DNA of 64,000 nt from a virus (lineage: Duplodnaviria; Caudoviricetes), in the IMG/VR virus record IMGVR_UViG_3300034093_003299, positions 22,900 through 86,899 of that record; one strand, written 5' to 3'. The position numbers were made by a program, and so were the translations under genes. The notes beneath the pieces are model-generated. The model was not told the origin of the DNA, did not search any database, and saw only the letters and a list, made by a program, of their open reading frames with translations. Below are positions 2,495 to 53,314 of the stretch, in pieces; position 1 is the stretch's first letter; every line of letters starts with the position of its first letter.

Positions 2495-3438
2495 GCACCA
2501 CTGAAAAAATAAAGCTTAGCGCCAGCAAAATTAAAACCGCTGAAGGCTGTAGCTGGCTTTACTATACTAAATATGTTCTTAAAGTGCCAGACATTTCTAA
2601 TTCCGGAGCTTCTAGAGGAACAATCTGTCATTTAATTTTTGAGCTTCTTTTAAAAGATAGACACAAGAAATATTTCGAAGACTTGTGTTCTGGCAAAGCC
2701 GGTGTAATTAAAAACCCCTGCATCCACAGACTAATTCTAAAAAACGCAAAGAAACTCAAAGTCAACGACGAAGAAAATTTGGATCTTATTTACATGATGA
2801 TTCAAACAGGCCTTCAAAATGATTTTTTTTGCAACGGATCTGTTTTATTAGAAGCCGAGTCGGAGTTCAAACTAGAAGAAGATGACTATATCATAAATGG
2901 CTTTATTGATAAGCTAGCAAAATTTAACGATAAAGAATATAAGATTTACGATTATAAATCAAGCAAAGCTAAATTCTCTAAAGAAGAGATAGACTTTAAC
3001 TTGCAAAACTTGATGTATTCTTTGGCTGTGTTTAAAACAAAGGGACATATTCCAACAGTGTCCTTTGTATTTTTAAAATTTAAAAAACAACCGATCCAAC
3101 AGGCACCCACCCCCACCCAAGAGCAGTTAGAAGGATTCAAGACTTATTTAAGTTATATAGCTGGATATATATCTTCTTTTGATGAAAAGAAAGCCGTGCA
3201 AAATCTTGCCGCCAAATCTTTTAAGAAGAAATGGATGTGTGGCAGCGATGTGGAAGGCAAATGGATCTGCCCGTCTAGACTACCAGCAACATTTTACATA
3301 GGCTCGGATGAGAAAGATAAATTTATTAAATCTTCATTCGATAAAGAATTGCTGTTGAAAGACCCCAAGGTAAAATTAATAAACAAAAAAGAATACAAGG
3401 GCTGCCCATTTTGGAGCAAAGATACGTTGACTTTTTGA
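2491..3438 (+). CDS. PD-(D/E)XK exonuclease (RecB/AddB/Cas4-like), probable recombination nuclease
   Basis: 315 aa. LSASKIK..C, RGTICH, GFIDKL...IYDYKSSK, QNLMY. One N-terminal and three C-terminal Cys (WMCG, WICP, GCPF) fit an Fe-S staple. Confidence 0.85.
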   Translation: MSTTEKIKLSASKIKTAEGCSWLYYTKYVLKVPDISNSGASRGTICHLIFELLLKDRHKKYFEDLCSGKAGVIKNPCIHRLILKNAKKLKVNDEENLDLIYMMIQTGLQNDFFCNGSVLLEAESEFKLEEDDYIINGFIDKLAKFNDKEYKIYDYKSSKAKFSKEEIDFNLQNLMYSLAVFKTKGHIPTVSFVFLKFKKQPIQQAPTPTQEQLEGFKTYLSYIAGYISSFDEKKAVQNLAAKSFKKKWMCGSDVEGKWICPSRLPATFYIGSDEKDKFIKSSFDKELLLKDPKVKLINKKEYKGCPFWSKDTLTF

Positions 3439-42190: not shown

Positions 42191-45100
42191 TTATTTCTTG
42201 AAATTCAATGCCGCTGGTCCTAATTTTTTTAACTCTGGGATCTTGTCAAATAATATACTGATAATTCCCTGCATTGCTTCATCAGGAGCATTTTGTATAG
42301 ATGATCTTCCATCAATATTAATAACATTAGAATTAGAAACAGTACTAGAAGACCCGCCCCCGCTCGGGAATGCTGATGTTATTCCAGTCTTTAAAGCTTC
42401 TGTCACAGCATTGGTAAAGTCTCCGGCAGCGAAATTAGGCACAGATCCTTGAGCGTAAGAAGGAGCAAAATTTCTAGGAGCAGACGATCTCATTCTAGAA
42501 TACACATCTCCAGAAGACATCATCCCGTTGCTCATTGCCGCGAAGTTAGGAACTCCGCCGCCAGCTCTTTCCTTCATTACTTGCTCAGCAGGGACTCTTC
42601 TTCTCATGGCTTCTTCTAGAACATCTTTGGGGAAGCCTGTTTCTCTAGTCGCTTGTTCATTTATTTCTGATAAAGATCTGCCTTGAGCAAGCCCTCCTGT
42701 TCTTACATTAGCTTCATCAGCAGTCATAAACCCCCCTCCGAAACCAGCCCTGTCTTGCATGACTCGTTCAGCGCTTTCTCTTCTTCTCGCAGCCTCTTCT
42801 AAAACGTCTTGAGGAAAACTGGGTATTGCCCTGTCTCTGAACTCTATGGCTGATTTAGGAATGACTCGATTAGCTTCTCTGCCAGCTTCTGCTTCTTTTG
42901 CTGTTTTATATATCTCGAAAGACTTAGCGAATCCTGGGTCTTTAAAGTCTGTAGGTTTGAACGATCCAAGACCGTATTGACCCTCTTGCTCTAATAAATA
43001 ATTTGCTTTATCTCTGGTAGTCGTGTAGCCATTAGCTTCCGCATTTTTATCAAAAGACTCAAGGAAAGATTTTCTTAGCTTTGAGCTTCTCGCTTCTTCT
43101 TGCTCGGATGATTCCTTATTTAATCTAGCTGTTTCCGCGTCTCTTATAGCATTACCTCCTGAAATTATACGCGCTATATTAGCTTTACCTTGTTTTTCTA
43201 ATTCCTTTGCGAGTTCTTTTGTTCTTTCTGTCTCTTCGAATTCCTGGCCTCTTTTAGACGCAGACATTTGAAAGTCTCTAGAAACTAATGGATTCCCAGA
43301 TATTTCATTGTACTTATTTAACTCTGCTAGTAGTTCTGCTTTTTTAGCTATTAATTGATTTGATTGAACGGCTTGATTAACAGTCGTTCCGCCTTTTGGT
43401 CTAACTCCAGCCTCGTAACTAGCTTTTGTTGTTCTTAAGCCAGATGCAAAATCGCCTAATTTATTTCCAATGCCTAATTTATTTTCTAAAATATTGCCAG
43501 TTCTATAACCTAAAAGCCCAACCGTGGCTGGCGCGGATCCTATAGCGCCCAATGCTGTTCCTATTGCGTCTCCAATACCAACAGACTCTTCCTCTCCTTT
43601 TCTTCCGAATATATCTTTCCATTCTCTTGCAAGGGTTAAGTCCTTAGTCTCGAAGTCTCCTAATCCGCCTAATATTACTCCCGCTGGACCAGCTACTTTC
43701 CCGACCCCCTTGGACAATCCGGCGAAGCTCGCGGCAGAAGATAACCCAGCCAATGTTGCTTGCCCATATTTCCCTTCTTTAGCTGATGAATAAGACTCAA
43801 GGCCTTGCGCTATTCCGAAACCTACAGATCCCGCTATGCCCAAGCCTTTCAATCCAAATTTTCCTGCTCCTTTAAGTTTATTTAGAACGCCAGAGGTCGC
43901 TGGCGAAGGAGATCCAGGAGGCTTTATTGCGCTAACGGGGCCAGTTGGAGCAGTTCCTGAAGTAGGAGCTGTAGGTTTTTTAGAAAGAAATTTATTTACT
44001 TCTTCAGGAGTGTATTCTTTAAAATTTGTAGCGCCAGCATTTAAATTTATAGTGTCTATATTTTCAATCACGCTTCTTAAATCAGCGCTTCTTCCTTTAG
44101 CGAAAGCTGGCTTCCCATATCTTCTAACCACATCCGATAAGTCAATTTTTTGCCCACTTCTAATTTTATCTGCCGCTTCTTTAGCCAATCGCTTGTTCAG
44201 TTTTGCCTGCTCAGCCTCTGAGAAAGCTTTCATCTCAGCTCTTTGCGGCGCTGTTCTTTCAAAATATCTATTCGCAGCAGCTTGTCTTTCTTGTTGCTGC
44301 GCCAATTTAAAATTCTCTCTGATCGCTTTCTCCAATATACTCTTGCTCTCTTTTTCGCTACCCGCCAAGAAAGCGTCTAAATAAGGATTCTTATTAGGCT
44401 TATTAGGCAGTTTTAAAGAAGGAGTCACTCTTTCAGATTGCATTTTTAGACTCCGAGATCTAATTCGAGTTCTGGTTTCCCCTTGAAGCTCACGGACGCG
44501 ATCGGCTGCCCTGCCCGTTGGCACGTAAGCTTGGTCTCTAAAAGTTACTTGCCCTTTCGGGAGCAAACCTAACGGGGATGTCTTTGTTTTGTTTTTATCA
44601 GAGAAAAGAGTGGATTGGCCCGGGGTAAACACGCCGGCCGCGGGAGTCTCTGTTCTGTTTTTACCAGAGAAAAGAGGTCTAGAAGATTGCCCTCTTGGTA
44701 GCATTTTCAAACCTCCAGATTGTGCGCCAGGTTGAAATTCAGAAGCTTTTTGAGCCAAAAAGGTATTCTGATATGCTGCCATCTGAATGTTTCCAGCTCT
44801 TCGGTTTGATTCAAGCATTCCTCTTTGTATTCTAACTTGCTCTTCTTGAGTTAACTGAAGCGCTTCTTGTAGTCCTGGTCTTTTTAAATAACTAGAAAAT
44901 CCAGAAATAGAACCCTGTGCTAATTGACCTTTTTTCGCTTCTTTAAGAAGCTTGCCCTGCTCTATATTTGCTTTTAATGTTTGCGCGGCAGTCATTTTTT
45001 GTGGCTTAACAGTAGGATTTACATTACCCATGCTTGGCCTGTTCCCGTATGGATAAATCTTGTTAACTAATCTTTCTGGGTAGAAAGGCATCGTTTTTTG

Positions 45101-48100
45101 AGATACTCCTAGAATCGGAGCTGGATCAGAAGGAATAACTGGCTTAGGGGCATCCGCTCTTGGGCCATATATTCTTTCTAGTAATTCTTCCATTCTAGAT
45201 TTAGCGAAATTAGGAACTTTTCCTTTCTTCATCCACTCTGGACTTGGATCAATTAAATCATTTCCTAATCTACTATTATAAGCGTCAGAAGGCTTTGCAA
45301 TATTACTTTTTTCTGGTTTCGCATATAATGAATTATACATGCGGTCAGCAAGATAATCAGTTAAGCCAGCCTTTTCACTCAAAGGCTTAACTATATATTC
45401 TCCTATATCTAATCCTAATCCAGCAGCTCCCAATCCCGCTTTTTTAGCGACATTTTTTGTTAAAAATTTAGCTGCATCTAAAGCTGGCCCAGCTAAATCC
45501 GTAGCTATTCCACCAGCATTTCCCTCTTGAACATTACCAATCAAAGATTGAGCATCATCTGCATTTGTGAACATATTACGAGCTTCATCTAAATTATCAC
45601 GAACTTTATCTAAATTACTCGCGTTCATCCAAGATGGCATTTTCATCCAAGATGGCATTGCGTAATTTGGAACAAATCCACTAGATCTCATTCCTAAACT
45701 TCTTAAGCCATTTTTTTCATCAATGCTATTTGTTACTCCAAAGCCTTGAGGGTTAGAAGCGGTTACTAAATTTGGGCTTCTTTCTAAGTTAATAGATGCC
45801 ATTGCAAAGTTAGGAACTCCCATTATTCCTCTCTTAGCTAGGGCCATTTTTTCTCTAGTTATTGCATCGTTTACAGGATTAGCAAAATTCTTTACAGGTG
45901 GACCGTCGCTCGCTTGAGCAGCGCCAGATTCAGATGCGTTACCCTTTACTTGGCTTGCGACAAGATTTACTACGTCAGCTCGTATGCCTTTATCTCCGAA
46001 AGTGGATTTTAAACTAGCTTCAAAACCGCTAACTAAACCTTGCCCCAGTGCTGTCGCTTGTTCTGTGATTTGTTGCTTTATAGGTACAAGAAGATCTTCC
46101 ACTCGCTTGAGCTCCGAGTCATCTGCTTTGGCTTGCTTAGCAGATTGGACTCCAAATTTTTCGTAATCTTGCATCGAGCTTTTCACTTCTCCTGGCACTT
46201 CTGGACTGCCAAATAAAGCATCGGCTTTCAAACCAGCAGATTCAAAAAGATATTTTGAATCAAAAGCTTTGTTTCTTAATAATCCAGATGTTTGCCCAAG
46301 GCCCATCATTTGAGCCATGTTAGCTCTCTTTAGCAAATCTCTTTGCATGTCCATAGCGTTGAGGCCAGTAAGCTCTCTCTTTACTCCTGATATGTCTGCT
46401 GGTTCTTTACCGTTTTTGGTTTGAAGAAGTCCAGGATATTTTTGCATTGTTTCTGTTAAGAAATCAGTAGCGCCTCCCACCTGAGTTCTTCTAGATCCAA
46501 ATAAAGTTCCTAATTGATAAGTAAGAGGCCCGCGTAACCCAGCAGACATAGACTCTGCTCTCATTTGTGGATTTATAGAAGTCTTAATATCTCCACCAAA
46601 AGCCAATTTCTCTTGTAAAGCTAAAAATTTAAGTTGTATGTTTTTAGTCTCATTAGCTATAGTTCCAGCTTTTTGTATTTCTCTTGTTTGTAAAGAGTTA
46701 AATTGTATTAGTTTTTCTATGCCAGCTACTTGAGCTTTGCTAAGACCAGGAAGTTGTTTTATTGACTCTAAGTCTCTTCCTGTTGCTACACCGGGAGTTT
46801 CTATTGCATTAAGCTTTGCTTGTACTTGAGACGGCAATCCTTTGGTAAATTCTTTGTCAGAAAGTTGCGCTAATAATGAATTTTGAAAAGATACCGAAGA
46901 TTGTGTAGTTTTAATTGCTAAAGAAGCATCAGAAGCGGCTGAAATTCCTGCTCTTTTGCTAAAGCCGCCTGCAAACGAAGCTAATTCTGGCAATTGGTCT
47001 TCTAAAGCTTTACTTATGCTTGATCTTATTTCTCTGCGGTCTTCGGTTTGTTGTTTTTTTCTTGTTAGCGGTTTTGAAACATCAATTATCGCTGCTTCTT
47101 GATTAGAAGAAATTTCGTTTAATTTTTGAGTTAATTTAAGCGCGTCTAAGAAGCCCTTTTTTAATTCATCAGTTTTAAATACATTAGAAAATTCTTCTAC
47201 ATTTAATCCTCCTTTAGAAAGAACTTCAGAAAAATTTGCTGGACCAGCTTTAGACAAGTCTTGCTTTAATAAATCTTGATTTCCCGAATTGATTACAGAT
47301 CTGAAAAATGAATCAAGTTCTTTTGGTGCGTCTTTGCCAAGAATGGTGCCTTTGCTTGAAAACTTTAAAGCTTCTTGTCTTACGGATTGTATTCTTTGGC
47401 TTTCTTTAGCGTTATCTTCAAGGATAGCTTGTTTACCAGCTAGGGTTGTCTCTGAAGCTAATTTAGATACAAGCCCTGGATTAGATCCCTTAACTTTAGA
47501 CAGTAAATCTGCTATACTCGCGGACAACTTTAATATTTGTTTAGGATCAGCTTTTGGATCTCTATAAGCGTCATCTAATTTAGCTAAAGAATTGGAAAGC
47601 TCTAATGTGTTCTCTGTTAAGTCTTGAAATGTTTTTTTAGAACGGTCCAAAGCTTGTTCGAATTTTTTTGTGTTTATTCTATTACCTAAGTCTGCTCCGC
47701 CTTGGAATCCCGCGAGGGTTCCTGCTGTTAATTGCCCTACGCCAGACGCAACCGCTATGCCTCTCTGCGTTTTAGAACCTTTTCCAAAAATTCCTTTGCC
47801 AATATTTTTTAGTCCAATAGCCCCAGGAATAGCAACATTAGCGAATGTCGAAGCTCTGGGGTCAATCAATTCGTTTTCAGCTAATGTATCTAAAGTGCTA
47901 CTAGCGGCAGAGCCGGCAAACAATTCAACACCCGCTGAGATAGGGTTCGCTAGATTATTTCTGCCCTTTAGCAATCCTAATCTTGACAAAACAGTAACCA
48001 GCTGTCTGCTAGGCAGAGCAAAATTTGGTACATCTTTTAGTCCATTAGGCTCGTCTATTTTGTTTGTAACTGCTATAGGATTTCCGCCTCTATCAAAATG

Positions 48101-51100
48101 AGCCATTATCTGAGAAGCCGGGACGCCTCTTTGTGCTAATGCTGTTTTTTCTCTACTTACTGCATCTGATAAGCCAGAAAAATTAGGAATATATCCTCCA
48201 GAGAAGCTATCTTTGTATTCAGCTGGGATATTTTTGATACCAGCAAATTGAGCTAATGTAAAACGATGATTTCCATCTTTAACTTCAGAATAAGAGTCGG
48301 GATAATTTGTTATTTCAATTGGCTCTTGTTTTAAGAAGTTGTATAATTTTAATTTATTTTCTTTTGAGGATAACGCGTCTGTTAAACCTTTTTTATTTAT
48401 ATTATCTAACTCAATCGGGATACCAATACTATTTAATATCTTATGTAAACCTGGGGCCGAAGCTTTATTAGCTTGACCAACATAGCCGCCCATTTTTTTA
48501 ATTTTTTCTGCATTGAAAGTTGATGCAAAATTAGGAATATATCCTTGCGATAATCCTAATAGCTTAGATGCCGCATCTCCTTTTTCGAACCTAAATCCTA
48601 TTGGTAATTTTGCGACTCTTACAGTCCCAAAAAGTTTTTTTGTTTCTTTATCAGATAAGCCTCCTGCTGTCTGAAAAAGTTTTTGTGCATTAACTGGCTC
48701 TATTCTAGACAAAGCTTTTCCATGTATCGCGGCAGGATAAATAGAATGCTGCGAAGACGAAGCTTGAGTTAAGCTTTCTGATCCAAATTCAGCAAGTCTA
48801 CTTATAGAAGATCCGAAATTTTTATTTTTTTGATAAAATTTTAGTATATCAGGTTCAATAAATGGAGAAACAATTTCTCTCATCTTATCGGGCCCTAAAG
48901 TTTTATAAAATTTATCAAACAGAGAAGTTAAGTTAGCAGTAGAAGTGCCTTCTTGAATGAATCTCGAAGTTAACTTAGGATAAGAAGCCTTCAATGCCTC
49001 TACAACCATTTTATTTCCAGCTAAACCTTGTATTAACCCTAAATCTCCTCCCATTCTTCCAGCTTGCGCCCCGAAAATAACTCTAGATCCAGATTCAACA
49101 AAAGGCTTTATGAGTTTAATCATATCATTCGTTTTTTCTTTATTCAAGAAAGCCGCTCCCATCCCGGGTCTTGCGAATGGATATTCAGGCCCGCCTCCGT
49201 GTTCGCCTGATAATGTATCGTATAAAGAAGAAACAAATAGATTAGAACCTTGCCCTACTATTCTTGGATTAGCGAAGTTAGGAATACGCCCAGAGGCGAA
49301 CGAATCGTTTCTTGTGCGTGAACCGACTTGCGTTCTCGCCCACGCCCATGTCCTGGCTTGTAATTCTCTGACTGGTACGCCTAGCTCTTTTGCTGCTGCG
49401 CCGTATTCCTTTACAAGTTTATTATAATATTTATATCCTCCAGCTGATTGACTGAAAACCTTTGATTTTTGCTTTTCTGATACTGCTCCTCTGTCATATT
49501 TTTCTTTTAAAGCTCCACCATTTCTTACGTATATAGCCCAACTGTCCATTACAGATGGAGTATTTAGTGGATTTTTATATTTACCAAATCCAGAAAAGTT
49601 TTTAGATAACAATAGACTCTGAGCAAAATTTTGAGTCTTAGCGCCTTTCCCCAATATAGACATTAACTCTTCCGTAGACCCAGAAGAAGCTAGCATTTTT
49701 TTTACTTTTTCTATGTTTTCAGGAAGCAATACTAAATCATCATAAGGTTGATTATTGGCAATCCTCTGTATGCCTTTTCTAGCAGCAGAATCCGCAGTGT
49801 TACCTGATAAGGCAGCCAAACCATAAGCTAATTTTTCTAAACTAGCGCCAGAAGAAGCGGATAAGTTTTTTAATTCAGAATTAACATTCGGATAATAGTT
49901 TTCATTTTTTTGCGCTGCGTTAAATCTTATTGGATCTTTTTCGGTTAAAGATGCTTTATAAGAATCAATTATATTTTGAATAAATTTAGATTTAGCAAAA
50001 TTAGGAACATATCCTTGGTTTAAAAAAGTAGGCCCATAAGCAAATTCATCTTTATACCCTAATTTAGATAAGCCTTTAGTTCTTTTTTTAGCCAAATCAG
50101 CATTCAATCCGAAAACCCCAGTATCAACGATATTGATTTCTCCGCCTTTTTTTGCTATAGAAGTTAAAATTCTATCCATTTGAGCTTCGCTCTCTTCGAA
50201 GTCTTTTGATTCTATTGATTTGATTAGTTTACCATAATTTCTTCTGAGAACTTTAGATAAAATAGTCTCAGATTTTTCATTAAACATTAAATTATCATAC
50301 TTGCCAACCAAATCGTCAGCTTTCATTCTGCCGCCCATATCTATTTGCATTTGGGCTCTACCAGCTATTAAATTGTAAAACTTATCAAAGCCTTGTCTTT
50401 CTCCAGTGTATGGATCCAAATCTAAGGCTAAATCTTTGCCTGTTTTGCCAGCTATTACTTTTTTATAAATAGAACTTTTTTGTATAGATTTTTCTAAAGA
50501 TCCATAAATTTCAGGAGTCTTAAATATTGGATTTAATTGTCCAGCGCCGATCATCTGCCCCAACTCTTGAGCGGCTACATATTCATTGGCAACGTTGGTT
50601 TTAGTTCTATTTGACTTTGGATCAAAAAAATCTTTCCTTCCCAAAGAACCTCTTAGCCCGAAAAATTCTCCGAAAAATCCTCCTCCTAAACGTTGTTTTG
50701 CAAAATTAGGAATATATCCTTTAGCGTAAGAAAAGTCTTCTCTATTTCCAGATATCGCTTCTTTTATAAAAACAGTATTTCCAATTTGGATAGCTTGCTG
50801 GCCGCCTACTATTGGTTTTTTTGTTTTTCTATCGTAATAATAAGAGTGTCTGTCTGGGTTGTATCCTACTTGAGTCCAATTTTTTAAATCTTTAGGCAAA
50901 GATTGATCTTTAGATAAAGTACCTGATATTTTTAATAATGGACTTTTTTCTTTTCCTGCTCCTATGTTTAAGGAGGCCCTTTCTAAGCCAGCAGACTTAC
51001 CCATTGATGGATTATCAAATGCAACAAATGAATCGTAAGATTTAAATCCTCCAGAGCTTTCTGTTTTCACTACTCCCACTCCTTTTCTTGTCATTGAAGG

Positions 51101-53314
51101 AACATCTTGGCGCACAGTTATTTCGCTTCCCGCAGGCAGCTCTGATAATTTATTTGCTCTTTTTGCTTGCTCTTTATCTAATGCGTTTTTAATCAAAGCC
51201 TGACTAGGTAAATCTTTTACGGAAGAAGGAGCTATTACTTCTCTTATCGGAATGTCTCTTTCTATTAAAGCATCTAGTAAATCTCTATCTATTTTTTCTC
51301 CAGTCTGGAGTTTTTGCAACATTGCTCTGGCTTCTGGAGAATACATGCGGCCAGCTTTGATTGCAGCTTTGCTTTGCGGATATTTTATCAAAAAGTCTTT
51401 GGGCATTTTATTGCTCTTAGACCAAGCGAAATTAGGAATGTATCCTTTAGACATTCTTGGTATTTCATCAAGATTTCTGTAATTAGGAATTATTGCTGTT
51501 TCTCCAGTTCCTCCATAATTTGGAATTATTTTTTCTTTATCGTTTACAATTACAGGGCCAGTTTTGCCTTGGATTGTGGCTTGAACTACTTCCGCTTTCG
51601 GATTAACAGCGCCCATTCTTCTAGCTGTGTTTTCTTCTAATTGGAAAGCCGCTGCTTCTACGCCCGTGTCAGGAATATAGCCCTCAGCGAATAGTCTTCC
51701 TATTCCTTTTCTAGAGGCTTTCTGGGCTGTGCTTACGGTAGAAGTGACTCTTCCCGTTATTCTAGATTGAGTTAAAAGAGATCTATTTTGTTCTTGAATT
51801 AGCCTCAATACCTCTGCTTCGGCTTGCGCTAAATTCATTTTGCGACTTATGACGCTATCAATTATCGCAGGATTCTCTCTTAAGGTATCGTTAATTCTTT
51901 TTTGTATTTGTAATTCTTTTTCAGAAGTAAACATTTCGGAGCTAGCTCTCCCCAACTGCTTTAATGAGCTCACTCCGAATTTAGCAAATTTTGCAGCCAG
52001 CAACCCTCCTGTAGCGGCTAAAATTGGTAAGCCACCTGCCCCTAAAGTTTTTCCTAATATCGAAGCCGCGCCTTTGCGTAGCCCATCGGCAAATTTTTTG
52101 CCAGAGTCTTCTCCTTGACCAAATAAATCAGAATTTGGACTTACTAATTTTAAAAGAACCTCTGAAACTGTGCTACCCAATTTAACTAATGGATCTAGCA
52201 AAGATGATCCTAGCGCAGCGGCAGCTTCTTGAGCGGATGTTTTAGTCTGCTGCAATACAGCAGACAGGCTTTTATTTAATTCTTCGTTCTTCTTTTTCGC
52301 TTCGTCTGTCGCGGCGCTGGAAACTCTTAAAGCATCAGCATAAACGCTATTAGAACTAGAAAGATCTTTAATTAAAGCATTTACTTGGTTAATCTGGTAA
52401 ATGCCACCAACTAGTTCTGCTGTTCTTGATTTTTCTGTTTGACTTAAATTTTTTGTAGCGTCAGAATAATTTTTTAAGATACTTATGCCATCTAATAGAT
52501 ATCCATTTTGGTCTTTAACTGCGACTCCTAACATCTCAAGCTGACTCAATACTTCTGGTCTTTGTAAGCGAGTAAATATTGTTTTTAAAGCGTTACCAAT
52601 TACAGCGCCGCCGCGTCCAGTTATTTGCTGTGCAGCAGTGACTGTCGCTATTAGCTTATCGATGCTTAGACCGCTTTCCTCAGCAGAGCTACCCACGCGC
52701 GAGAGGGCTTCGTTCAACTGAGCGGAACTAACAGCAAATCTTGTATCAACAGCGATTAACTTGTTAGTAATATCTTCCGAAGTCAAAGCTTCTTTATTAA
52801 AACTGTTAATTGCTGTAGTTATACCATTTACAGCTTGTGCATAACTAATACCAGCTATTCTTGCTAGGGTTAGGGCACTTCCTGTTCTTTTTAATATTTC
52901 ATTAGCAGAAAGACCTTGTCTTGCGAACTCTTTCGCGGCTTCGGCAGCGGCTTCGAATGGAACTGCCGAGTTTTTGGCTACTTTAAATAAAGACTGAGAA
53001 AAACCTTCTAATTCATTTCTTGATTTGCCTAGATATGTATTTAATTCTACTAATTGTTTATCTACTTCTATAGTAGCTTTAGCGCCTTCTCTAATAGCTT
53101 GAGAAACTTTATAAATAGCTCCAGCAGTTAAACCGAAAGCTGTAACGCGAGCAGTGGCTGCTGATAATGATTTGGTGAACTCCGCTGCGTCTCCGCTGAT
53201 TCTTCCAAGAGGCTGAGCAAATTTTGCAGAACCGATAGCTGCCGTGAAGCTATTAAAAGACGCTTGCGCCGGAGCAGTATTTAAAGTAAGATTGGCTTGA
53301 ATATTCGTTGGCAT
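42191..53314 (-). CDS. Tail tape measure protein (PhageMin_Tail/TP901-type N-terminus) carrying internal enzyme-like cassettes
   Basis: 3707 aa. The N-terminal core (EAAKEFARQGLS..E...AL.LA...V.GIT.AINSF...NKL.AVD..FAVSS..L.EAL.R.GS.A...G.......G..IGNALKTIF.RL) is a classic TMP. Gene lies after the major tail protein and chaperones. AAGGA Shine-Dalgarno upstream. Confidence 0.92.
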   Translation of the reverse strand: MPTNIQANLTLNTAPAQASFNSFTAAIGSAKFAQPLGRISGDAAEFTKSLSAATARVTAFGLTAGAIYKVSQAIREGAKATIEVDKQLVELNTYLGKSRNELEGFSQSLFKVAKNSAVPFEAAAEAAKEFARQGLSANEILKRTGSALTLARIAGISYAQAVNGITTAINSFNKEALTSEDITNKLIAVDTRFAVSSAQLNEALSRVGSSAEESGLSIDKLIATVTAAQQITGRGGAVIGNALKTIFTRLQRPEVLSQLEMLGVAVKDQNGYLLDGISILKNYSDATKNLSQTEKSRTAELVGGIYQINQVNALIKDLSSSNSVYADALRVSSAATDEAKKKNEELNKSLSAVLQQTKTSAQEAAAALGSSLLDPLVKLGSTVSEVLLKLVSPNSDLFGQGEDSGKKFADGLRKGAASILGKTLGAGGLPILAATGGLLAAKFAKFGVSSLKQLGRASSEMFTSEKELQIQKRINDTLRENPAIIDSVISRKMNLAQAEAEVLRLIQEQNRSLLTQSRITGRVTSTVSTAQKASRKGIGRLFAEGYIPDTGVEAAAFQLEENTARRMGAVNPKAEVVQATIQGKTGPVIVNDKEKIIPNYGGTGETAIIPNYRNLDEIPRMSKGYIPNFAWSKSNKMPKDFLIKYPQSKAAIKAGRMYSPEARAMLQKLQTGEKIDRDLLDALIERDIPIREVIAPSSVKDLPSQALIKNALDKEQAKRANKLSELPAGSEITVRQDVPSMTRKGVGVVKTESSGGFKSYDSFVAFDNPSMGKSAGLERASLNIGAGKEKSPLLKISGTLSKDQSLPKDLKNWTQVGYNPDRHSYYYDRKTKKPIVGGQQAIQIGNTVFIKEAISGNREDFSYAKGYIPNFAKQRLGGGFFGEFFGLRGSLGRKDFFDPKSNRTKTNVANEYVAAQELGQMIGAGQLNPIFKTPEIYGSLEKSIQKSSIYKKVIAGKTGKDLALDLDPYTGERQGFDKFYNLIAGRAQMQIDMGGRMKADDLVGKYDNLMFNEKSETILSKVLRRNYGKLIKSIESKDFEESEAQMDRILTSIAKKGGEINIVDTGVFGLNADLAKKRTKGLSKLGYKDEFAYGPTFLNQGYVPNFAKSKFIQNIIDSYKASLTEKDPIRFNAAQKNENYYPNVNSELKNLSASSGASLEKLAYGLAALSGNTADSAARKGIQRIANNQPYDDLVLLPENIEKVKKMLASSGSTEELMSILGKGAKTQNFAQSLLLSKNFSGFGKYKNPLNTPSVMDSWAIYVRNGGALKEKYDRGAVSEKQKSKVFSQSAGGYKYYNKLVKEYGAAAKELGVPVRELQARTWAWARTQVGSRTRNDSFASGRIPNFANPRIVGQGSNLFVSSLYDTLSGEHGGGPEYPFARPGMGAAFLNKEKTNDMIKLIKPFVESGSRVIFGAQAGRMGGDLGLIQGLAGNKMVVEALKASYPKLTSRFIQEGTSTANLTSLFDKFYKTLGPDKMREIVSPFIEPDILKFYQKNKNFGSSISRLAEFGSESLTQASSSQHSIYPAAIHGKALSRIEPVNAQKLFQTAGGLSDKETKKLFGTVRVAKLPIGFRFEKGDAASKLLGLSQGYIPNFASTFNAEKIKKMGGYVGQANKASAPGLHKILNSIGIPIELDNINKKGLTDALSSKENKLKLYNFLKQEPIEITNYPDSYSEVKDGNHRFTLAQFAGIKNIPAEYKDSFSGGYIPNFSGLSDAVSREKTALAQRGVPASQIMAHFDRGGNPIAVTNKIDEPNGLKDVPNFALPSRQLVTVLSRLGLLKGRNNLANPISAGVELFAGSAASSTLDTLAENELIDPRASTFANVAIPGAIGLKNIGKGIFGKGSKTQRGIAVASGVGQLTAGTLAGFQGGADLGNRINTKKFEQALDRSKKTFQDLTENTLELSNSLAKLDDAYRDPKADPKQILKLSASIADLLSKVKGSNPGLVSKLASETTLAGKQAILEDNAKESQRIQSVRQEALKFSSKGTILGKDAPKELDSFFRSVINSGNQDLLKQDLSKAGPANFSEVLSKGGLNVEEFSNVFKTDELKKGFLDALKLTQKLNEISSNQEAAIIDVSKPLTRKKQQTEDRREIRSSISKALEDQLPELASFAGGFSKRAGISAASDASLAIKTTQSSVSFQNSLLAQLSDKEFTKGLPSQVQAKLNAIETPGVATGRDLESIKQLPGLSKAQVAGIEKLIQFNSLQTREIQKAGTIANETKNIQLKFLALQEKLAFGGDIKTSINPQMRAESMSAGLRGPLTYQLGTLFGSRRTQVGGATDFLTETMQKYPGLLQTKNGKEPADISGVKRELTGLNAMDMQRDLLKRANMAQMMGLGQTSGLLRNKAFDSKYLFESAGLKADALFGSPEVPGEVKSSMQDYEKFGVQSAKQAKADDSELKRVEDLLVPIKQQITEQATALGQGLVSGFEASLKSTFGDKGIRADVVNLVASQVKGNASESGAAQASDGPPVKNFANPVNDAITREKMALAKRGIMGVPNFAMASINLERSPNLVTASNPQGFGVTNSIDEKNGLRSLGMRSSGFVPNYAMPSWMKMPSWMNASNLDKVRDNLDEARNMFTNADDAQSLIGNVQEGNAGGIATDLAGPALDAAKFLTKNVAKKAGLGAAGLGLDIGEYIVKPLSEKAGLTDYLADRMYNSLYAKPEKSNIAKPSDAYNSRLGNDLIDPSPEWMKKGKVPNFAKSRMEELLERIYGPRADAPKPVIPSDPAPILGVSQKTMPFYPERLVNKIYPYGNRPSMGNVNPTVKPQKMTAAQTLKANIEQGKLLKEAKKGQLAQGSISGFSSYLKRPGLQEALQLTQEEQVRIQRGMLESNRRAGNIQMAAYQNTFLAQKASEFQPGAQSGGLKMLPRGQSSRPLFSGKNRTETPAAGVFTPGQSTLFSDKNKTKTSPLGLLPKGQVTFRDQAYVPTGRAADRVRELQGETRTRIRSRSLKMQSERVTPSLKLPNKPNKNPYLDAFLAGSEKESKSILEKAIRENFKLAQQQERQAAANRYFERTAPQRAEMKAFSEAEQAKLNKRLAKEAADKIRSGQKIDLSDVVRRYGKPAFAKGRSADLRSVIENIDTINLNAGATNFKEYTPEEVNKFLSKKPTAPTSGTAPTGPVSAIKPPGSPSPATSGVLNKLKGAGKFGLKGLGIAGSVGFGIAQGLESYSSAKEGKYGQATLAGLSSAASFAGLSKGVGKVAGPAGVILGGLGDFETKDLTLAREWKDIFGRKGEEESVGIGDAIGTALGAIGSAPATVGLLGYRTGNILENKLGIGNKLGDFASGLRTTKASYEAGVRPKGGTTVNQAVQSNQLIAKKAELLAELNKYNEISGNPLVSRDFQMSASKRGQEFEETERTKELAKELEKQGKANIARIISGGNAIRDAETARLNKESSEQEEARSSKLRKSFLESFDKNAEANGYTTTRDKANYLLEQEGQYGLGSFKPTDFKDPGFAKSFEIYKTAKEAEAGREANRVIPKSAIEFRDRAIPSFPQDVLEEAARRRESAERVMQDRAGFGGGFMTADEANVRTGGLAQGRSLSEINEQATRETGFPKDVLEEAMRRRVPAEQVMKERAGGGVPNFAAMSNGMMSSGDVYSRMRSSAPRNFAPSYAQGSVPNFAAGDFTNAVTEALKTGITSAFPSGGGSSSTVSNSNVINIDGRSSIQNAPDEAMQGIISILFDKIPELKKLGPAALNFKK
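42429..51445 (-). repeat. Dispersed in-frame repeat G-x-[IV]-P-N-[FY]-[AS] (about 12 copies) in the TMP
   Basis: + strand copies of about gcaaaattaggaatatatcc start at 51426, 50700, 49995, 49272, 48525, 48177, 48018, 45804, 45660, 45204, 42540 and 42429. Weaker xxNFA variants occur near 45882 and 42465. Confidence 0.9.
45624..45659. repeat. Perfect 18-bp tandem duplication (MPSWMK-MPSWMN)
   Basis: ttcatccaagatggcatt occurs twice, at 45624-45641 and 45642-45659. Confidence 0.95.

Follow-up and report, generated by a model that had tools for sequence, protein, structure and literature searches.

Analysis of a 64,000-nucleotide stretch of DNA (the window) from an uncultured lake phage of the Caudoviricetes (IMG/VR record IMGVR_UViG_3300034093_003299) supports the presence of a kinase-like cassette with catalytic motifs inside a giant tape measure protein (TMP), P0001. 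Our preferred reading, to which we assign a probability of roughly 60%, is that residues ~873-1100 of this protein form a genuine, catalytically competent minimal PKL kinase that is carried as a TMP cassette, is injected, and acts on its targets before phage genes are expressed. Of this reading, the predicted fold, the conservation of the catalytic residues, the setting within a TMP and the behaviour as a cassette are established. The kinase cassette is real; truncated phage kinases had been predicted before, and a TMP setting is not described in the earlier account of them (PMC5512222).

The carrier gene and its boundary peptides

The carrier is encoded by a single open reading frame, within which the following features were placed:

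42191..53314, minus strand: giant TMP gene, P0001, 3707 aa, carrier of the kinase (single ORF)
52148..53113, minus strand: TMP core of the TP901 type, aa 68-389 (TIGR01760, E 1.5e-36)
51968..52072, minus strand: hydrophobic, Gly/Ala-rich segment 1 of the TMP, aa 415-449, which may insert into a membrane (Kyte-Doolittle scan)
50699..50719, minus strand: upstream boundary peptide GYIPNFA, aa 866-872 (copy of a 26-nt DNA repeat)
50015..50698, minus strand: kinase-like module, aa 873-1100 (AlphaFold2 model, kinase-only top structural matches, family profile against CDPKs)
49994..50014, minus strand: downstream boundary peptide GYVPNFA, aa 1101-1107 (copy of the DNA repeat)
49331..49915, minus strand: neighbouring cassette DUF7178 (PF23802), aa 1134-1328 (E 3e-07 with the whole protein, 7.3e-10 with the module)

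P0001 is a tape measure protein, as its core scores above curated cut-offs and its gene is positioned among tail genes. In profile searches the N-terminal region (aa 40-450) matches TIGR01760 (126 bits against a cut-off of 28.8), PF10145 (E 2.9e-26, 93 bits against a cut-off of 33.2) and twelve TMP PHROGs, and a tail or major-tail-like protein is encoded upstream of the gene. The core is kept N-terminally in all 14 full-length homologues (>2000 aa) that start at their own N-terminus, and homologues combine PF10145 with similar tail-gene neighbourhoods, most clearly in L001; homologous loci share the same gene order. The protein contains no cysteine in its 3707 residues, a composition that is compatible with unfolded passage. 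The Kyte-Doolittle scan also identified hydrophobic segments at aa 1852-1870 and 3245-3269, with the kinase module falling between segments 1 and 2. An HExxH motif, the mark of an in-cis zincin protease that could cut cassettes, was not found in P0001 or in P0003, which is the TMP closest to it, and is present in several homologues of P0001.

The kinase is one swappable cassette between G-Y-[IV]-P-N-F-A peptides. This boundary motif occurs 11 times in P0001 versus 0.035 occurrences expected, and copies of the 26-nt DNA repeat family lie at 50699-50724 and 49994-50019. The neighbouring DUF7178 cassette is also carried by P0003. Elsewhere in the protein, a segment with a D-G-N-H-R motif (aa 1598-1708) was considered as ParB/Srx-like, an assignment that Pfam does not support at E<=1.

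Catalytic motifs and fold of the module

The original prediction described six kinase-like motifs in a given order inside the TMP, and all six are present in that order within aa 873-1100 of P0001 on the minus strand; a plus-strand reading of 50015-50699 was rejected, as its translation is full of stops. The elements of the putative active site are as follows:

50660..50692, minus strand: Gly-rich loop RLGGGFFGEFF, aa 875-885, with G877, G879 and G882 forming GxGxxG (conservation, alignment with the CDPK G-loop)
50633..50635, minus strand: K894, counterpart of the beta3 "VAIK" lysine (24 of 24 copies; aligned to the CDPK VAIK Lys)
50582..50584, minus strand: E911, counterpart of the helix-C glutamate (24 of 24 copies; aligned to the CDPK alphaC Glu)
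50279..50317, minus strand: catalytic loop, aa 1000-1012, with D1001, K1005 at N-3, N1008 and N1012 (aligned to HRDLKPEN of CDPK)
50150..50278, minus strand: family-specific helical hairpin of ~43 aa, aa ~1013-1055, between the catalytic loop/beta7 and the DxG strand (DSSP, AlphaFold2 model)
50111..50137, minus strand: DFG-equivalent INIVDTGVF, aa 1060-1068, with D1064, G1066 and F1068 (conservation in 24 copies)

In the AlphaFold2 model the Gly-rich loop corresponds to strands 1-2, and E911 sits in a long helix (module residues 36-57). The motifs LGRKDF, NEYVAAQEL and TPEIYG begin at aa 891, 910 and 933, respectively. The catalytic-loop motif DDLVGKYDNLMF lies at aa 1000 (50282-50317), its conserved catalytic Asp being the second D of "DDL" (D1001). 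This loop is indeed two residues longer than the D-x4-N pattern, reading D1001-x6-N1008. INIVDTG starts at aa 1060 (50117-50137), which places D1064 of the DxG 56 residues after N1008, and canonical kinases have about 13-20 residues between catalytic loop and DFG. The long distance arises because a helical hairpin is inserted; its two helices (module residues 147-169 and 173-189 by DSSP) are modelled with a pLDDT of about 87-96, and the hairpin is present in all homologues. A search for a second kinase-like copy within P0001 found none.

Structure prediction followed by Foldseek, which had been proposed as the check on the motif assignment, gave a confident bilobed PKL fold for which the top matches in the PDB and BFVD are all kinases. 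The AlphaFold2 model, built from a 15-sequence alignment, has a pLDDT of 84.2 and a pTM of 0.80, with elements ordered as in kinases (beta1-3, long helix, beta4-5, helices, beta7, beta8). When compared with 48,161 PDB chains by VIA-align, 299 chains had Z>=5 and the best 50 were all PKL kinases (Z 8.4-10.2), including BRAF, ULK4, Rio1/2, Rv3197, haspin, Bud32, ADCK3 and OspG. Foldseek against the PDB likewise returned kinases only (Ark1, Rio2, PRPK, APH(2'') and PINK1, and also MTR kinase and PsiK), the best being the RNA kinase Ark1 at E 2.4e-4. Fold matches in BFVD are almost only viral kinases, herpes tegument kinases among them. Judged by the bilobed model, the module is predicted to have the kinase fold of the PKL superfamily.

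At the level of sequence, the family profile gave 105 matches against PDB sequences at E<=10, with Ser/Thr kinases making up nearly all of the 60 matches listed. The best was a CDPK kinase (E 2e-4) that aligned with the G-loop, Lys, Glu and DxxxxN in register, and the only significant sequence matches of the profile are ePKs. Among 15 family members, recurring sub-threshold matches were to Pkinase (3 of 15, the best at E 2e-4), ABC1 (2 of 15), a PHROG kinase (3 of 15) and a MADS6 kinase (4 of 15), while Bud32 and RfaY were each matched by a single member alongside other, unrelated single-member matches. The P0001 module alone matched no Pfam family even at E 10, PF00069 Pkinase thus staying below its gathering threshold; it gave no kinase match by phmmer against the PDB, and a search of the ESM Atlas provided no usable match. 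As no kinase was matched by the single sequence, the call of homology is based on the profile match at E 2e-4 together with the predicted structure. Residue alignment indicates that the catalytic set (beta3 Lys, helix-C Glu, catalytic Asp, Asn and metal-binding Asp) is present.

The suggestion of an ePK/ELK fold holds for a kinase-like PKL fold with conserved catalytic K/E/D/N/D; it does not hold for a canonical ePK, as the domain is truncated and atypical. In the model D1064 is followed by one helix only (module residues 206-218) and then by a disordered linker that leads to the PNFA peptide. The module has no activation segment, APE motif or helices F-I, and its structural alignment with BRAF stops near helix F. 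The P0001 copy departs from the ePK pattern of D-x4-N with DFG 13-20 residues further on, as it has D-x6-N, DTG in place of DFG, ~55 versus ~20 residues before the DxG, and no alphaF-alphaI lobe. We therefore classify the domain, on the predicted structure, as a truncated, atypical PKL without the C-terminal substrate-binding subdomain.

Conservation and distribution of the domain

The P0001 module is a conserved domain of ~210 aa that is also found in about 21 other proteins, nearly all of them giant TMPs. Homologous TMPs have one to three copies at varying positions and, for 14 homologous giant proteins with the N-terminal TMP core, the kinase lies at positions 613-2737. Overall identity across 24 domain copies is 25-36%, and at this level K894, E911, N1008 and D1064 are kept in every copy, D1001 and N1012 in 23 copies each, and the glycines of GxGxxG in 22-23, with the G-loop lost in one copy within P0002. 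A D-x4-N loop, mostly D-L-H-x-G-N, is present in 15 of the 24. The DFG-equivalent has D in 24, G in 23 and F in 20 copies (family consensus h-h-D-P-G-x-F), and I-x-K-[E/K]-V describes the final strand of the N-lobe, where K951 is invariant (24/24) and position 952 is occupied by E (19), S (3), K (1) or Q (1). Five of the six motifs put forward as kinase hallmarks thus hold invariant or nearly invariant residues in the 24 copies, and for this reason the motif match goes beyond chance. TPEIYG contains the invariant P934 and is no kinase hallmark.

A phmmer search of the module over 1.84 billion representatives yielded 18 matches, nearly all giant proteins. Of 11 that were inspected, nine have PF10145; eight lie on metagenome or run contigs and three in NCBI assemblies that we take to be metagenomic. 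The carriers are a family of giant cysteine-free TMPs from uncultured, mostly metagenomic phages. By tblastn against 50,697 phage records (INPHARED) the module had no match at E<=0.01, and a pattern search based on a six-sequence alignment gave 22 pattern matches and no relatives among 185,579 species genomes. Neither the phmmer nor the pattern search brought up a protein of a named genome, and in IMG/VR the one match was a stretch of 99% identity on an 86.6-kb contig, which is probably the source of the window itself. A word-indexed search for stand-alone forms of the domain (124-448 aa) found none; one candidate, P0005 (385 aa), was rejected since it is only part of an 861-aa ORF, which itself lies on a short contig. 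Additionally, metatranscriptomic libraries contain contigs that overlap the module in part, an overlap that we do not count as proof of expression because DNA carry-over is possible. The domain is a compact kinase family of ~210 aa that is unrecognised by Pfam and undescribed at the sequence level.

Known systems, alternative functions and meaning

The closest described counterparts in architecture are the phage "polyvalent proteins", for which truncated Ser/Thr/Tyr-type kinase domains have been predicted (Iyer, Burroughs, Anand, de Souza, Aravind 2017, J Bacteriol; PMC5512222). As in P0001, these kinases sit within giant multidomain phage proteins whose genes are found among those for the virion; they have lost the entire C-terminal subdomain with the residues for ATP binding and phosphotransfer intact, and are predicted to be delivered with the DNA for a T7-kinase-like action. 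They also have an insert between the conserved His and the phosphotransfer Asp (PMC5512222); in the P0001 family a 43-aa hairpin separates the catalytic-loop H-x-x-N from the Asp of DxG, and this hairpin may correspond to the published insert. In contrast, polyvalent carriers are linked to MuF/portal or head packaging, with tape measure proteins mentioned nowhere in PMC5512222, and their last N-lobe strand has a conserved Gln whereas the P0001 family has K951 followed mostly by Glu. Published members of the polyvalent clade come from prophages of Verrucomicrobia and Bacteroidetes (PMC5512222).

The one proven precedent for an enzyme within a TMP is gp96 of Thermus phage P23-45, a 5002-aa TMP fused to the virion RNA polymerase (Chaban et al. 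2024, Nat Commun; PMC10770324). This protein is injected and acts pre-early, the TMP being regarded as metastable inside the tube and as forming the channel through the envelope (PMC10770324). Both gp96 and P0001 are giant TMPs with an enzyme, a working and injected one in gp96 and a predicted one in P0001; delivery has been proven by experiment for gp96, whereas we infer it for P0001. The gp96 enzyme is an N-terminal RNA polymerase of the two-barrel type as opposed to a kinase in mid-protein, and gp96 lacks an array of PNFA-fenced cassettes. Kinases have also been detected in the virions of cyanophages S-CRM01, S-TIM5, S-CBWM1 and S-CREM2 (PMC10665884). Like the proposed P0001 kinase, these and the herpesvirus tegument kinases are particle-borne and presumed active at entry, but they are separate proteins, probably of the capsid or tegument, rather than covalently part of a TMP. 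The Sle1-type effectors of actinobacterial contractile injection systems (CIS) are TMP-related and modular (PMC13277306) and share with P0001 a TMP-derived carrier with exchangeable domains. They are loaded in a tail-like tube and ejected, yet belong to a bacterial CIS rather than a phage TMP and have one C-terminal functional domain, with no kinase reported. T7 gp0.7, a phage Ser/Thr kinase for host takeover (cited in PMC5512222), is the functional model for a possible role of the P0001 kinase; unlike the latter it is an early gene product and not a part of the virion or TMP, and it shows no similarity to the module at BLAST sensitivity (tblastn, 50,697 phage records, E<=0.01). The literature searched contained no report of a kinase within a tape measure protein.

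Among cellular enzymes, RIO1/RIO2, Bud32/PRPK, Ark1 and OspG resemble the module in being small (about 170-250 aa) and in lacking an activation segment and substrate lobe, with structural Z of 8.4-10.1 and Foldseek E of 2.4e-4 to 1e-2; Rio1, Rio2 and Bud32 reach Z 9-10. The P0001 family differs from them in its ePK-like GxGxxG loop and, to our knowledge, a helical hairpin between beta7 and DxG is not known from these families. One family member has a weak NCBIfam Bud32 match (E 0.039), and Pfam RIO1 is not among the matches listed.

In the mechanism that we propose, the N-lobe would be of the ePK type, with the GxGxxG loop, beta3 Lys894 and helix-C Glu911 followed by a hinge, and Asp1001 and Asn1008 of the catalytic loop together with the metal-binding Asp1064 of DxG would complete the active site. 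The TMP would leave the tail before the DNA, the cassette having presumably been kept unfolded or metastable within the tail tube, and the kinase may then refold in the ATP-containing host cytoplasm and phosphorylate targets of the host, or ones injected along with it, ahead of all phage gene expression. The effect would resemble that of T7 gp0.7 with no need for transcription. Storage and refolding are assumptions of this scheme, because a folded domain of ~25 kDa should not fit the lumen of the tail tube beside other TMP copies. A virion-delivered kinase acting ahead of phage gene expression, as originally proposed, is plausible given the TMP context and the precedent of the P23-45 TMP-RNA polymerase. 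A more far-reaching version, which we advance tentatively and regard as a real but lesser prospect, views the TMP as a "magazine" of Cys-free enzyme cassettes that would be stored unfolded, threaded in before the DNA, refolded and possibly cut at the fence peptide, with the new minimal kinase phosphorylating host proteins of defence, transcription or translation seconds after adsorption, ahead of the reading of any phage gene, and with related phages exchanging kinase cassettes by recombination at the fence.

The term "protein kinase" is not assured for the module, because RIO and Bud32 are chiefly ATPases and the substrate of Ark1 is RNA. An active kinase with a non-protein substrate, such as RNA or tRNA (Ark1), a lipid or LPS sugar (Kdo/WaaP/RfaY) or a small molecule (APH/ChoK/MTR kinase), is an unlikely reading that nonetheless deserves consideration. 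It would fit Ark1 as best Foldseek match, the further matches to APH(2''), MTR kinase and PsiK, the weak RfaY match in one member, the missing peptide-binding lobe, and the D-L-H-x-G-N of homologues, which recalls the D-x-H-x-x-N of APH/ABC1-type enzymes. However, the sequence-profile matches are protein kinases, the GxGxxG loop is typical of ePKs, and matches to small-molecule kinases show lower TM-scores and higher rmsd. Somewhat less probable is a RIO/Bud32-like ATPase or nucleotide switch, in which the binding or hydrolysis of ATP in the host cytoplasm would power a conformational change of the TMP after its ejection, such as the opening of a channel, release or pulling in. The best structural matches include Rio1, Rio2, RIOK3 and Bud32/PRPK, RIO and Bud32 are mainly ATPases, and the substrate-binding C-lobe is missing. 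Against this, the G-loop, the beta3 Lys motif and K1005 at N-3 are ePK-like rather than RIO/Bud32-like, the profile matches are CDPK-type protein kinases, and one to three copies at varying positions suit cargo better than a fixed mechanical part.

We give a similarly low weight to a kinase that works in the producing cell, on host or virion proteins or in tail assembly, and is then buried or clipped off and never delivered. The TMP is made late and, before assembly, is folded and free in an ATP-rich cytoplasm, the folded domain is too large for the tube lumen, and the boundary peptides could serve as processing sites; yet P23-45 delivers a large active TMP-fused enzyme, the Cys-free composition and cassette swapping suit exported cargo, and P0001 has no protease motif. 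That the domain is a pseudokinase or inert spacer, a kinase-derived fold retained only as bulk to set the length of the TMP or to bind a partner, is quite improbable. The longer catalytic loop and DTG (in place of DFG/DPG) of the P0001 copy and the lost G-loop in P0002 would agree with it, but pseudokinases usually lose the catalytic residues, and all five of these are intact in P0001 and vary hardly at all among the 24 copies, whose identity is about 30%. Chance resemblance of motifs in a low-complexity structural protein would account for the single-sequence Pfam and PDB searches without a kinase match; it has a negligible probability, being refuted by the family conservation, the profile matches and the confident model of a kinase fold.

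The module, in which a helical hairpin replaces the usual tight beta7-beta8 turn and no substrate lobe is present, is of interest for kinase evolution and also as a minimal scaffold. It also sharpens the physical question of how a tail tube of ~4 nm can hold globular enzyme domains and let them pass. If the kinase is active and delivered, phages could modify host proteins at DNA entry without transcription, at the moment when restriction, CRISPR and abortive-infection systems decide the outcome. The P23-45 RNA polymerase, the only proven TMP-borne enzyme, would then be joined by one for post-translational modification, and tape measure proteins would be modular effector carriers and more than rulers.

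The tape measure protein and its kinase-like module

The original prediction described a protein-kinase-like cassette, delivered with the virion, inside a tape measure protein (TMP). The module in question lies within an uninterrupted minus-strand ORF (42191..53314) that encodes a protein of 3707 aa, here called P0001, while translation of 50015-50699 on the plus strand gives stops. On sequence grounds P0001 is a tape measure protein, as it matches TIGR01760 (aa 68-389, 126 bits vs a cut-off of 28.8) and PF10145 (E 2.9e-26), and its first ~450 aa match twelve TMP PHROGs. It carries a single kinase copy, located between the first two of three hydrophobic segments and enclosed by a pair of "fence" peptides, which mark the boundaries of cassettes in the TMP.

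Features of P0001 around the module
51968-52072 (aa 415-449), minus strand: Gly/Ala-rich segment 1, by hydrophobicity
aa 866-872, minus strand: upstream fence peptide, G-Y-[IV]-P-N-F-A
50015-50698 (aa 873-1100), minus strand: kinase-like module
aa 1101-1107, minus strand: downstream fence peptide, G-Y-[IV]-P-N-F-A
49331-49915, minus strand: DUF7178 cassette immediately following the kinase (PF23802; E 7.3e-10 with the module as query)
47705-47761 (aa 1852-1870), minus strand: Gly/Ala-rich segment 2, by hydrophobicity
43508-43582 (aa 3245-3269), minus strand: Gly/Ala-rich segment 3, by hydrophobicity

The three Gly/Ala-rich segments resemble, in sequence, the glycine zippers with which TMPs insert into membranes. 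There is also a striking bias against cysteine, with none among the 3707 aa of P0001 (42191-53314) and none in seven of eight other giant homologues checked (proteins of 3065-5354 aa; the eighth has one), and this absence would suit unfolded passage or exposure outside the cytoplasm. No HExxH motif is present in P0001 or in its closest relative, P0003; one to three occur in the homologues P0002, P0009, P0010, P0016 and P0018 (the first four at loci L002, L005, L006 and L011), where, as in polyvalent proteins, they may mark processing peptidases of the zincin type. A 111-aa cassette (aa 1598-1708, window 48191-48523) has a D-G-N-H-R motif suggestive of ParB/Srx-type domains, and Pfam returned nothing for it at E<=1. 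A weak HIGH_NTase1 match (aa 390-625, window 51440-52147; E 0.0087, 15.8 bits vs a cut-off of 27) is sub-threshold and may be due to chance. Two repeats also lie within the gene: a perfect 18-nt tandem duplication (45624-45659), which is translated as a repeat of M-P-S-W-M-x, and copies of a 38-nt sequence 66 nt apart (44573-44676).

Catalytic residues and predicted fold

All six predicted motifs were found in the order claimed, at aa 875, 891, 910, 933, 1000 and 1060 of P0001, and the catalytic loop is indeed longer than canonical (D-x6-N). Used alone as the query, this module had no match among Pfam families up to E 10, none to a kinase among PDB sequences and none in 50,697 phage records. 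When 1.84 billion representative proteins were searched exhaustively with phmmer, 18 relatives emerged (E 1.6e-25 to 2.8e-4), 13 of them 2369-5354 aa long, and a profile search added three more; some relatives carry two or three copies. PF10145 is present in 9 of the 11 relatives traced to their contigs, and most of these 11 are preceded by a short upstream gene run resembling that of the window. For example, the upstream genes of L001, the closest locus, correspond almost one to one with the 376/93/237/331-aa run of the window.

Identity among the homologous copies is only 25-36% overall. In an alignment of 15 copies (A1), K28, E45, D135, N142 and D198 (module numbering; K894, E911, D1001, N1008 and D1064 of P0001) are invariant. 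Protein kinases use precisely these five residues for catalysis, and their order here is the canonical one.

Conservation of module residues in 24 copies from 21 proteins
K894, E911, N1008 and D1064: kept in 24/24
D1001: kept in 23/24
G-loop glycines: kept in 22-23/24

The AlphaFold2 model built with A1 (pLDDT 84.2, pTM 0.80) begins with three strands, the long helix that carries E911, a second set of two strands and a hinge. A pair of helices then precedes the catalytic loop, which is accompanied by a short strand, and another pair precedes the strand that runs into D1064; after a final helix the chain is disordered as far as the following fence peptide. The bilobed PKL fold, whose absence from the predicted structure would have counted against the original prediction, is present. 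When the model was compared with 48,161 PDB representatives by VIA-align, the best 50 matches were kinases only (Z 8.4-10.2), including BRAF, ULK4, Rio1, Rio2, Rv3197, RIOK3, haspin, APH(2''), Bud32, ADCK3, OspG and Ark1, and 299 chains reached a Z of at least 5. Among the matches listed, Foldseek gave PKL proteins only from the PDB (best, the RNA kinase Ark1, E 2.4e-4) and almost only viral kinases from BFVD, among them tegument kinases of herpesviruses and kinases of Bacillus phages. Almost all PDB sequences listed as matching the A1 profile were Ser/Thr kinases; the best is a CDPK (E 2e-4), whose G-loop, Lys, Glu and HRDLKPEN each line up with the family's counterpart. Individual members gave recurring sub-threshold matches to Pkinase, ABC1, PHROG "kinase" and MADS6 kinase, while Bud32 and RfaY were matched by single members, among other unrelated single-member hits. 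The predicted structure and the sequence comparisons support the kinase reading, and together show that this TMP contains a conserved domain with a kinase fold and a complete set of catalytic residues.

As modelled, the module is a minimal, atypical PKL. Its N-lobe and G-loop resemble those of eukaryotic-type kinases, and the substrate-binding C-terminal subdomain (activation segment, APE and helices F-I) is wholly absent. Because a helical hairpin of ~43 aa (aa ~1013-1055) replaces the tight beta7-beta8 turn of canonical kinases, the DxG lies 56 residues past the catalytic Asn. The loop itself is D-x4-N in 15 of 24 homologous copies, mostly as D-L-H-x-G-N. At N-3 P0001 has K1005, as in D-L-K-x-x-N, and most homologues have His, which is found in APH/ABC1-type catalytic loops.

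A swappable cassette and its occurrence

In 14 full-length relatives the TMP core is N-terminal, while the kinase lies anywhere between residues 613 and 2737 and has differing neighbors, which shows the module to be a swappable TMP cassette. The DUF7178 cassette is shared with P0003. G-x-[IV]-P-N-F-A punctuation (strict [IV]PNF) occurs 11 times in P0001 (42428-51450, minus strand) vs 0.035 expected, and it recurs at module boundaries in most homologous giant TMPs. The underlying DNA forms a 26-nt repeat family of eight copies, some of which flank the kinase exactly. The fence peptide might be where the protein is processed, a signal for threading or a site of recombination.

Fourteen metagenome runs on lake water, dated 2020-2024, contain the same 4 kb with roughly 100% identity, and the window itself may come from some of them; fragments are present in freshwater RNA libraries. 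No relative was found among species-representative genomes. One freshwater RNA-library contig shows 13 differences from the window (49058-49503) in the DUF7178 cassette. The distances between the 11 listed positions are without exception multiples of three, the pattern that purifying selection would leave if the changes are synonymous and fall at third codon positions. Downstream of the TMP (12000-42175) are large minus-strand ORFs of 630, 608, 596, 1158, 461, 193, 1086, 3232, 925 and 1155 aa; a PHROG scan of four of these gave no match, and the products presumably form the baseplate or fibres of an unusual tail.

Relation to known systems and proposed role

Conceptually nearest are the kinases lacking the C-terminal part that Iyer et al. 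predicted as a clade in phage polyvalent proteins (PMC5512222); these have in common with our module the truncation, an intact active site and a proposed T7-like role, and perhaps also an insert. The carrier differs, that paper making no mention of tape measure proteins, and so does one signature, a conserved Gln in their clade and Lys-Glu in ours. The literature we searched contained no account of a kinase within a TMP. We place the module with known classes, the PKL kinases and the polyvalent virion proteins; its carrier is a TMP, and its sequence family and insert are undescribed.

TMPs of long-tailed phages are probably metastable in the tube and expelled into the envelope before the DNA; P23-45 gp96 is proof that a TMP-fused enzyme can be delivered and act before phage gene expression (PMC10770324). 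Kinases have also been detected in cyanophage virions (PMC10665884). Under the proposed delivery with the tail, the cassette would be stored unfolded in the tail tube, reach the host cytoplasm and refold there, and would then phosphorylate its targets with host ATP before any phage gene is expressed. The module may instead act as an ATPase switch, may have a non-protein substrate or may act in the producing cell. What a phage kinase can achieve is illustrated by T7 gp0.7.
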